This document shows, piece by piece, positions 33,096 through 34,575 of a DNA stretch of 64,000 nt. Both the position numbers and the translations under genes were made by a program. This DNA comes from Escherichia coli (GTDB taxonomy: Bacteria; Pseudomonadota; Gammaproteobacteria; Enterobacterales; Enterobacteriaceae): NCBI RefSeq assembly GCF_050320075.1, contig NZ_CP190018.1. The stretch is one strand, 5' to 3'. The number at the start of each line of letters is the position of its first letter. Position 1 is the first letter of the stretch. The notes below the pieces were generated by a model. The model made no database searches. It saw nothing but the letters and a program-made list of their open reading frames with translations, and was not told the origin of the DNA.

Positions 33096-34575
33096 CACCA
33101 TTTAACTGAAAGCTACCATAACGTCTTTTTGATCACACGCATGATAATGCGTCTCATTTAAATTTCGTTTTTTGGGTCATGGAAATTTTCCGAACATCAG
33201 TGATAATGAGGGTTTTGTTGTTTTTGTTTCTGCAATGTTTGAGGGCTGTTCCTGGAGACGATTCGTTGCTTGTGAGCAAGTGGTGGTCCGCTTTACTGGA
33301 CGAGTTTTGCATTTGTTGAGTGGTGAAATGGAAGTAAAAAGAGCCCCTTTCTGGCAATGACTGAAAAAGTCAGTAGCGTGTAACAGTAAAAACTAACATA
33401 AAGTGATTATCGTATGATTATGACAATAACTTATAACTTTTATGAAAAGAACAACAGAAACTACGAAGCCATAACAGATTCCTGAGACCATGTTTTCTGA
33501 GGTAGAGAAAATAATTCAAGAGTAAACCAGTTTGTTTTTTGGTCAGTAAAGAACCATGCCTGATGTGAAAACGGGTAATCAACATTCAGTCTGCATGGAT
33601 GTTTGGAAGAGTTGAGAATGTCGGTATGATACTATATACACGTATTTTTACTAAGCATTTCAGTAAGTGTTATACACGTATTTTCATAAACACTTCTACA
33701 AGTGTTTTCGTTAAGCATTGCTATACACATCCAGTTTAGTAAATCTTTACGTTAACTAAATCAGTTTAATGCTGCTGTAAAACCTTTCTGCTTCAGCAAT
33801 CAATCTGCTATTCGATTTTACTGATGTTACGTTTAACCTTTCCTGATATTTCGAGTTTCGACGTTAGCATGAGAAAAGTATCTTTACGCTAAATCAACCC
33901 GAACTTTCCTGAAGTAATCTGACGTTCTTTTCGATGTGCTTACGACGATTCTGTTAAACGACTTTCTGGATGTTTTGATAACAATCAGATTTAGGCATTA
34001 ACGATTCCTGACGTTTTTCTTTTCCGTGTAAGGTCATTGTTTTCGTCATGATGTGACTCTTCTTGCATTGCGAAAGTGTGATGAACGGTTTTGGTGTTTT
34101 GATTCAGATGAAGTTTACGTTATCGATGGTTAATCGTTTTTATGGTGCGTAGTGAAACGTAACGCTTTCAGGAAGGGAAAATCGATTCTGATGGGGATGA
34201 TCGTGTAACGGCGTTATCTGTAAACAGGTTTTAAACATGTCATTCGCATCCGTGATTAAGTTGTGTGATTAAGCTGTAGGTTTTGGCGTTGTTGTTGATT
34301 TGCATTACCAGGAAGCGTTCTGGTTGCGTTTCTGGTGTTTTGTTTGAATGTTCTGTGGATCCTTTTCCCTTCTGACTTTTCTCGTTGTCCATGTCGTTTT
34401 TAAATCCATTCGCTGTTCTTGAGTGTTTTTACCCTGTGTGTAGGATTATCTTTTTGTTCCGTTTCAATCACTCTTAATCAGAAAGTTGTAGCATTGCTCA
34501 ATGCCGGATGCCGTAAAGTTTTACCGCGGTGATTAATGATGTGAAGTCAATCCAAATCAACGGAGATCTCTCATC

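Follow-up and report, generated by a model that had tools for sequence, protein, structure and literature searches.

The 64,000-nt stretch analyzed here (the window; contig NZ_CP190018.1 of RefSeq assembly GCF_050320075.1) is a chromosomal region of Escherichia coli near fim/nan and contains a P4/CP4-57-like island. The plus strand of this island encodes three paralogous proteins of the YfjJ/YagK family: a Gp2/YfjJ-family HUH protein of 243 amino acids annotated as 'inovirus Gp2 family' (34576-35307; Gp2), a YagK/YfjJ-domain protein of 188 amino acids (second paralogue, 40519-41085) and a protein of 190 amino acids annotated as 'hypothetical' (third paralogue, 41333-41905). The genes are ordered as Gp2, ~5.2 kb of cargo, the 188- and 190-amino-acid genes, an AlpA-like gene and a ProQ/FinO gene. 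A block of ~65 nt lies on the plus strand directly 5' of the Gp2 gene (block 1, 34506-34575) and is repeated on the same strand 5' of the third paralogue (block 2, 41110-41185). We conclude with high confidence that this block is a real, selected, non-coding leader module that travelled with its gene at duplication.

Both blocks contain an exact 16-mer, TGATTAATGATGTGAA (box A; 34530-34545 and 41145-41160), and an exact 12-mer, TCAACGGAGATC (box B; 34557-34568 and 41167-41178), each of which occurs only twice on the plus strand of the window. Local alignment of 34513-34580 with 41128-41190 required a single 5-nt indel and yielded a score of 53, compared with 19.8±2.3 (maximum 29) for shuffled sequences. 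A lone 16-mer repeat would be unremarkable in 64 kb; by these statistics, its combination with a collinear 12-mer and an extended alignment is remarkable. The original prediction, a first reading of the window, had described a block repeated 5' of YfjJ-family paralogues that includes the Shine-Dalgarno sequence of the first gene. Both statements are borne out, as the exact 16-mer and 12-mer and the local alignment identify a genuine shared element, and GGAG (34562-34565) within box B is the Shine-Dalgarno sequence for ATG 34576; the similarity is not confined to this sequence and spans ~65 nt. Box B of block 1 stops 7 nt short of ATG 34576, and 3' of TGAA at the start codon no significant similarity was found within the Gp2 coding sequence. 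A putative third, degenerate block after Gp2 (~35417-35500) scored 18 against 17.7±2.8 for shuffled sequences and was not significant. Box fragments 5' of block 1, namely ATGATGTGA (34048) and two copies of GTGATTAAG (34252-34273), sit in hypervariable sequence and were taken as chance matches. A conserved peptide encoded within the block was likewise rejected, as the 5-nt indel shifts box B into different frames between the copies, and alleles differ at the candidate peptide starts GTG 34529 and ATG 41144.

A small palindrome, GTAAAGTTTTACC (GTAA-N4-TTACC, 34513-34525), lies at the 5' edge of block 1 and has counterparts in block 2 (41128-41140) and 5' of the second paralogue (GTAAGTTATTACC, 40427-40439), all on the plus strand. 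This motif has five matches in the window compared with 0.27 expected, a number reached by none of 100 shuffles, and four of the five are located at the three paralogue leaders (34513, 40427 and 41128; the block-2 site, being palindromic, is counted on both strands). In all three leaders a start codon follows the palindrome after exactly 15 nt, namely GTG 34541-34543 within box A of block 1, ATG 40455 in the leader of the second paralogue and GTG 41156 within box A of block 2. That the second paralogue shares this palindrome and, at the same distance from it, an upstream start codon had been overlooked by the original prediction, as had the short upstream open reading frames (uORFs) that are opened by the upstream start codons and close at main start codons. 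The Gp2 uORF (34541-34579, plus strand) comprises 12 codons (VKSIQINGDLSS), and its TGA overlaps the Gp2 ATG as ATGA; both its length and its overlapping stop are the same in all 64 unique alleles of the Gp2-associated block. The plus-strand uORF of the second paralogue (40455-40526) comprises 23 codons, ends with a TAA 5 nt past the main ATG 40519 and is kept in 49 of 51 copies. The start of the latter uORF also represents the last of three occurrences of the motif CTGAT(T/A)ATGAG(T/C)GA in the window (30635-30650, 38697-38712 and 40449-40464).

This architecture extends across genera. Relatives at 36-50% protein identity include Brenneria and Providencia. Their leaders average only 51% identity and yet preserve a hexamer resembling TTTACA/TTAACA, which after 15 nt is followed by T-R-T-G and then, 28-36 nt downstream, by a GGAG and the main ATG. 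T-R-T-G does not vary among nine leaders from several genera, and the spacing from T-R-T-G to the main ATG (or, in block 2, the homologous position) is exactly 30 nt in six of the nine, block 2 included. The stops of the uORFs tend to gather around the main start: relative to it, the stop is located at +1 in block 1, at +5 in the second paralogue and in relative L143, and at -3 in relative L151, and the uORF is fused in frame with the main gene in relatives L016, L137, L140 and L156. The pattern is missing in more distant relatives (28-34% identity) and in K-12 yfjJ/yagK.

Block 1 was identified in 1,904 and block 2 in 1,876 of 5,426 complete E. coli genomes (~35%). A metagenome scan anchored on 20 core bases yielded 74 type-1 copies, defined by an 11-nt spacer between the boxes, and 70 type-2 copies, defined by a 6-nt spacer (C[T/C]GAAG). 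Provided that the contig extends far enough, all type-1 copies precede Gp2, and all type-2 copies precede the 190-amino-acid gene and then an AlpA-like gene; the 5' neighbor of type 2 is Gp2 in 20 of the 70 copies and the second paralogue in 48. Contigs with both types carry type 1 followed by type 2 on the same strand, spaced either 933-937 nt (15 contigs) or 4.1-10.2 kb apart (14 contigs), with variable cargo and the second paralogue between the blocks in the long form. The block is absent upstream of K-12 yfjJ and yagK, had no match in phage records and, with the exception of five E. coli records, was absent from the plasmid collection. A scan of genome contigs with a single protein returned two loci only, and the proteins listed at 54-71% identity were truncated E. 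coli copies. An 86%-identical Gp2 gene together with block 1 was also found on a 6.5-kb contig of a metagenome-assembled genome assigned to Bacillota (L005, JAEYLX010000008.1), which is most likely an Enterobacteriaceae contig that was mis-binned.

Sequence diversity drops sharply at the 5' edge of block 1, where nucleotide diversity (π) among 62 unique alleles is 0.005-0.06 from position 34506 onward compared with 0.23-0.6 upstream and with a synonymous divergence (dS) of 0.16 in Gp2. Block 2 forms a conservation island between variable flanks: π is 0-0.05 over boxes A and B, 0.20 in a 7-nt linker of constant length and 0.07 at positions -40 to -11, which were not used for ascertainment, compared with 0.15-0.4 in the flanks and a dS of 0.25 in the adjacent 190-amino-acid gene. 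In copies not themselves ascertained, the exact core was present in 71 of 75 and 66 of 68 cases. The type-specific differences (11- versus 6-nt spacer, and loop sequence) are fixed in the 74 and 70 copies, and ongoing gene conversion is therefore disfavored. As far as the sequences tell, both blocks are under purifying selection and do not represent leftover homology, because the coding similarity between the paralogues is nearly gone while the boxes have remained identical.

Block 1 is preceded by a 1.4-kb AT-rich stretch (33096-34505, GC content 0.33-0.40) without a credible open reading frame, which is hypervariable among strains (π 0.3-0.6, exceeding the synonymous divergence of the flanking gene) and contains three imperfect 23-nt direct repeats (TACACGTATTTT..., 33637-33719). 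Relatives from other genera likewise carry 0.4-1 kb of non-coding DNA 5' of their Gp2-like gene. Two conserved islands, 34474-34480 (TTAATCA) and 34495-34502 (TTGCTCAAT), separated by ~14 variable nt, are located just 5' of block 1. In reverse complement, TTAATCA reads as the TGATTAA of box A; the two islands could pair with box A or could act as the promoter of Gp2, in which case transcription would start near 34509.

The third paralogue had been proposed to have lost its start codon, its ATG reading ATT, so that the gene (41201-41905) would either use another start or be undergoing pseudogenization. In register, ATG 34576-34578 aligns with CTG 41186-41188; the proposed ATT (41179-41181) directly follows GGAGATC and is 7 nt out of register, and no ATG to ATT substitution exists. 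The extent 41201-41905 is merely that of a mechanically called GTG open reading frame, and the RefSeq annotation begins the gene at ATG 41333. That the gene uses another start was correct, as ATG 41333 has its own GGA(A/G) ribosome-binding site, and four divergent alleles, and subsequently 54 unique metagenomic sequences, all preserve this ATG, its context (CATATCTTATGAATG) and the codons of the N-terminus. Block 2 thus sits 147 nt from the true start of its gene, which had also been overlooked. The interval 41186-41320 is variable, contains indels of 12, 13 and 14 nt, not all of them multiples of three, and evolves as non-coding DNA, and the position homologous to the Gp2 ATG is CTG, TTA or deleted, with a start codon absent in every allele. 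The frame 5' of ATG 41333 is often open for 39-67 codons. An ATT or CTG start and an N-terminal extension of the third gene were nevertheless rejected, as the two allele groups are unrelated in sequence here, the indels are not multiples of three and some alleles contain in-frame stops. With 67 of 71 copies intact (186-205 amino acids) and a ratio of non-synonymous to synonymous divergence (dN/dS) of 0.19, the gene does not appear to be decaying. The loss of an ATG followed by pseudogenization is almost certainly wrong: the start at the position homologous to the Gp2 ATG is truly absent, but CTG and not ATT aligns with it, ATG 41333 is where the homologous N-terminus of the protein starts, 67 of 71 copies are intact and the sequence preceding the gene behaves as non-coding. 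The sequence evidence already refutes this reading.

The YagK/YfjJ family was found to have an HUH endonuclease fold. Gp2 matches PF11726 (127.8 bits compared with a cut-off of 25.8, E 5.5e-37) and PF23343 'REP_ORF2-G2P', and the second paralogue scores just under the Pfam cut-offs (21.5 bits for PF11726 and 24.5 bits for PF23343). The third paralogue has no Pfam match, and aligns with the family profile in hhalign with a probability of 83% (E 9e-6) over 150 collinear columns. Pairwise identity among the three proteins is only ~21% over short stretches (E 0.01-0.03 or worse). The family alignment, into which the second paralogue also fits, contains invariant H-x-H and Y-x-x-K...K motifs (H101, H103, Y213 and K216). 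These catalytic motifs are present in Gp2 (HUH motif HYH, tyrosine motif YLVKY) and in the second paralogue (HAH and YLAKE) and absent from the third, which has EYH in place of the HUH motif and SDFARDRR in place of the tyrosine motif. By these alignments, the third paralogue is a catalytically degenerate member of the HUH family that has lost both catalytic motifs and kept fold-level similarity. Compared with the dN/dS of 0.19 in the third gene, the ratio is 0.31 in Gp2 (dS 0.16; 61 of 80 copies at the full length of 243 amino acids) and 0.14 in the second paralogue (45 of 47 copies intact). All named matches of the 190-amino-acid protein are from E. coli, and relatives at 36-50% identity have a Gp2-like gene followed by AlpA without the 190-amino-acid gene, which suggests that the latter is a duplicate that arose in the Escherichia lineage. 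Residues ~153-189 of E. coli Gp2 form a low-complexity insertion of ~40 residues (...RKPTSSDARPSSDDTPVPGGCSDTRKDSDKKSGG...) that is absent from all relatives and predicted to be disordered (pLDDT below 50).

The minus strand of the island encodes the usual island set, including a YfjP-like GTPase, a helix-turn-helix protein, DUF932, antirestriction and RadC/JAB proteins, and YeeU/CbtA. The conserved 3' neighbor of the module is a plus-strand AlpA-family helix-turn-helix gene (41974-42207; Pfam PF05930, E 2e-10). The interval between Gp2 and the second paralogue (35308-40518) is a variable cargo slot, which elsewhere measures 0 kb or 3-9 kb. In the window its ~5.2 kb contain an Mrr-like restriction endonuclease, fragments of insertion sequences (IS) and an H-NS-like gene; between the blocks of other contigs the contents differ and include Mrr-like, TIR_2, AAA_15/OLD-like ATPase and DUF3987 (YfjI-like) proteins, IS21 and pseudouridine/sugar kinases. 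Shared junctions are located 10-20 nt 5' of the block-2 palindrome, and the slot resembles a defense/cargo hotspot. Furthermore, two adjoining pairs of direct repeats ~6.16 kb apart, one of 283 nt (95% identical, 37416-37698 and 43579-43861) and one of 85 nt (84% identical, 37266-37350 and 43420-43504), bracket the H-NS-like gene, the second and third paralogues and alpA. They are contained in annotated frameshifted transposase pseudogenes, the left one of unspecified family and the right one of the IS3 family.

Several classes of known signals were searched for at the blocks. Rfam 15 covariance models had no match at gathering score in the whole window, RNAalifold predicted no consensus pairs for the cross-genus leader alignment, and no intrinsic terminator was found at either block. 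A hairpin pairing box A with the Gp2 start has a z-score of -2.06 in block 1, compared with about 0 in block 2, and is not shared; an RNA hairpin masking the Gp2 start was therefore rejected, being predicted for block 1 only and disrupted by allelic changes, none of which compensate. Similarly, the palindrome stem comprises only 4-6 bp, and its allelic variation is disruptive or wobble but never compensatory. The conservation is thus not explained by a conserved RNA structure, a terminator or an Rfam family. No σ70-like promoter was identified on either strand within 34200-34700 and 40950-41450; weak plus-strand promoter matches occur at the homologous position in two of four relatives scanned. 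There was no 10-mer in the window complementary to the conserved boxes, besides the blocks themselves, that would indicate a trans-acting antisense RNA, no convincing site for CRP, Fur, IHF, LexA or TyrR in a comparison by eye with consensus sequences, and no conserved repeated motif of the iteron kind. Hybrid blocks, junctions lacking Gp2 and circular forms were absent among ~140 occurrences. Nothing was found in the literature on the function of YfjJ/YagK ('inovirus Gp2') proteins or on the box sequences.

We tentatively favor the block as an mRNA leader and translation-control module, in which an upstream start codon and short open reading frame would feed ribosomes to the main start and the boxes would be bound by a factor. 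The block would thus represent the non-coding leader, transcribed as a 5'-untranslated region, of a Gp2-type HUH-nuclease gene. Leader and gene would have been duplicated in tandem in the Escherichia lineage, with the third paralogue inheriting the leader. Its putative parts are the small palindrome or hairpin GTAA-N4-TTACC, the fixed 15-nt linker, the upstream [A/G]TG in box A and the Shine-Dalgarno box B. How much Gp2 is made may depend on translation of the leader open reading frame, through termination-reinitiation coupling, and on the factor that would bind to the two invariant boxes. Copy 2 would have lost the main start at the homologous position and now sits 147 nt 5' of ATG 41333, yet it is nearly unchanged. 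Because block 2 was kept despite the lost start, we infer that the same sequence-specific factor acts on both genes; candidates are a protein of the module (Gp2, the catalytically dead paralogue or AlpA) or an RNA. It counts in favor of this reading that conservation is far stronger in the block than in the coding sequences 3' of it, and that the upstream codon alternates between A and G at its first position, a change that start codons tolerate. Of the earlier suggestion of a shared translational control element, the shared element is confirmed and the role in translational control is plausible.

Several observations weigh against translational coupling. The GTG open reading frame of block 2 comprises two codons in 30 of 54 unique alleles and 15 to more than 84 in the rest, and ends near no main start; coupling cannot explain the conservation of block 2, because this frame is variable and far from the main start. 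A weak UGAU precedes the upstream start, which has no consistent GGAG-type Shine-Dalgarno sequence. Conservation does not extend to the uORF peptides, and the uORF stop is located 18 nt before the main ATG in relative L141 and 41 nt after it in relative L154. The statistics of the uORFs are modest, open frames of 12-23 codons not being rare. In addition, the plus-strand promoter that can be drawn in relatives (TTTACA-18-[A/G]ACAAT) would leave the upstream ATG outside the transcript, and the purine/pyrimidine alternation would also fit position 5 of a -35 hexamer on the minus strand. Finally, the invariant boxes of 13 and 12 nt exceed the needs of generic translation signals, which points to a further factor.

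The main alternative, which we regard as somewhat unlikely, is that the blocks are DNA recognition sites of the island's HUH proteins, either an origin or nick site or an autoregulatory operator. HUH enzymes as a rule have their cognate sites beside their own gene, and here a palindrome is present at all three paralogues with an HUH initiator gene adjoining. The small hairpin, fixed 7-nt linker and conserved box resemble the sites of relaxases, rolling-circle Rep proteins, IS200/IS605 or RAYT, the HUH and Y-x-x-K-Y motifs are invariant in the family, and the dead third paralogue could be a non-cleaving binder. Recognition of DNA would also fit conservation at the level of primary sequence without RNA covariation, would account for the conservation of block 2 without a start codon, and would be in line with direct-repeat blocks that bracket Gp2 and a variable cargo of 3-9 kb and whose 5' edges are both mosaic junctions. 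However, the parts conserved across genera (T-rich hexamer, start codon, GGAG and ATG) look like generic expression signals and not like lineage-specific iterons; no iterons are conserved, and the partial motif copies at 34048 and 34252-34273 are embedded in hypervariable sequence. The hairpin stem is short and lacks compensatory changes, boxes A and B are 5 nt further apart in one copy than in the other, the cargo junctions fall ~10-20 nt 5' of the palindrome and hence outside the boxes, and the ~140 occurrences include no hybrid block, Gp2-less junction or circle. A bolder version, in which the blocks are origin-like and terminus-like sites of the Gp2 HUH nuclease that delimit a rolling-circle-mobilizable cassette of Gp2 and 3-9 kb of exchangeable cargo (Mrr-type restriction enzyme, TIR-domain, AAA_15/OLD-like and DUF3987 genes), with the dead paralogue as a site-binding regulator, is highly improbable.

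The conserved bipartite motif, whose linker varies in sequence but not in length, the sharp 5' boundary of conservation expected for a promoter-plus-gene module, and the fixed distance of ~30 nt to the ATG, which a minimal 5'-untranslated region would yield, could also indicate a core promoter with an overlapping operator. In this case the plus-strand -35 element would be the palindrome arm TTTAC(C/A), with the -10 element after T-R-T-G, or a divergent minus-strand promoter (TTCACA-N16-TAAAAC) would fire away from the gene. A scan indeed returned TTAACA-18-AACAAT in L137 and TTTACA-18-GACAAT in L151, on the plus strand and at the exact positions, but no site at the motif in L154 or L140 and no σ70-like site on either strand of the E. 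coli blocks. The would-be -10 element reads AAGTCA and AACTGA in the E. coli blocks and, at the second paralogue, AGCGAA. What a promoter predicts is reversed in E. coli, where the copies agree in the putative spacer (TTAATGAT) and differ in the putative -10 element; a minus-strand transcript, in turn, would enter 0.4-1.5 kb of hypervariable non-coding DNA. We consider a promoter unlikely. The absence of a start codon at the homologous position of block 2 in every allele, the separate Shine-Dalgarno sequence and ATG of the third gene, and the usual distance of only ~935 nt between the directly oriented blocks would suit a functionless block 2, which either decays as a remnant of the 5' end of a Gp2-type gene after duplication or owes its similarity to gene conversion from block 1. 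This is very unlikely: within the same sequence set the diversity of block 2 is several-fold below that of its own flanks and of the synonymous sites of the adjacent gene, and the formerly coding sequence just 3' of it has decayed beyond detection. The fixed type-specific differences argue against ongoing conversion, and the longest identical run of 16 nt is a poor substrate for RecA-mediated conversion.

Translation coupled to a leader peptide is known from the plasmid initiators of R1 (tap/repA), ColIb-P9 (repY/repZ) and pMU720 (repB/repA). As in these leaders, a short open reading frame ends at or overlaps the start of a replication-initiator-type gene, and the leader is highly conserved in nucleotides while the peptide sequence is unimportant. 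In contrast to Gp2, these plasmid initiators are not HUH proteins, and they are controlled by cis-encoded antisense RNAs (CopA, Inc RNA) together with a pseudoknot or stem-loop; no antisense promoter, terminator, conserved structure or trans-complementary sequence was found at the blocks or in the window. The mRNA leader of f1/M13 gene II contains a translational operator that is the target of the gene V protein. It resembles the block as an unstructured primary-sequence element at the ribosome-binding region in the leader of an HUH rolling-circle initiator, and PF11726 and PF23343 'ORF2/G2P', the Pfam families of Gp2, are named after inovirus G2P. However, the module lacks a gene V homolog, the likeness to the f1 operator noted here is one of position, and the element described here is duplicated before a catalytically dead paralogue, 147 nt from its start. 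An HUH-fold gene directly beside a small palindrome and conserved sequence is also reminiscent of HUH Rep origins and operators (geminivirus iterons, the Rep-binding element of the adeno-associated virus p5 promoter and the double-strand origin of pMV158) and of the inverted repeat plus nic of transfer origins and the IS200/IS605 and REP/RAYT hairpins, and here direct repeats bracket the gene. In contrast to HUH Rep origins, the blocks contain no iterons or known nick consensus, their hairpin is very short and without covariation, and no cleavage-mediated rearrangement was seen. With P4-like and CP4-57-type islands (alpA-yfjI-yfjJ, and yagK of CP4-6) the locus shares AlpA, a YfjJ/YagK HUH-like protein, the YfjP-like GTPase, the antirestriction/RadC/CbtA-YeeU set and, in some cargos, DUF3987 (YfjI-like). 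About 35% of complete E. coli genomes carry this distinct sub-lineage, which the 243-amino-acid Gp2 type, the dead paralogue and the block set apart from K-12 yfjJ/yagK.

Through this analysis, the third gene receives a corrected start and its false designation as a pseudogene is withdrawn. YfjJ/YagK ('inovirus Gp2') proteins are found in a large share of E. coli islands; the results show that they are HUH-fold proteins, and that one sub-lineage has a selection-maintained leader common to an active-looking enzyme and a dead paralogue. As the conserved leader of a mobile-element gene family, the block represents an undescribed element of a conventional kind, and its 65-nt site provides a concrete experimental handle. 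If the origin-and-terminus reading were true, it would constitute a new way to capture and swap defense cargo inside P4-like islands. If the leader is a recognition site of an HUH protein, it would define the DNA or RNA specificity of these proteins and might explain the adjoining variable cargo slot.

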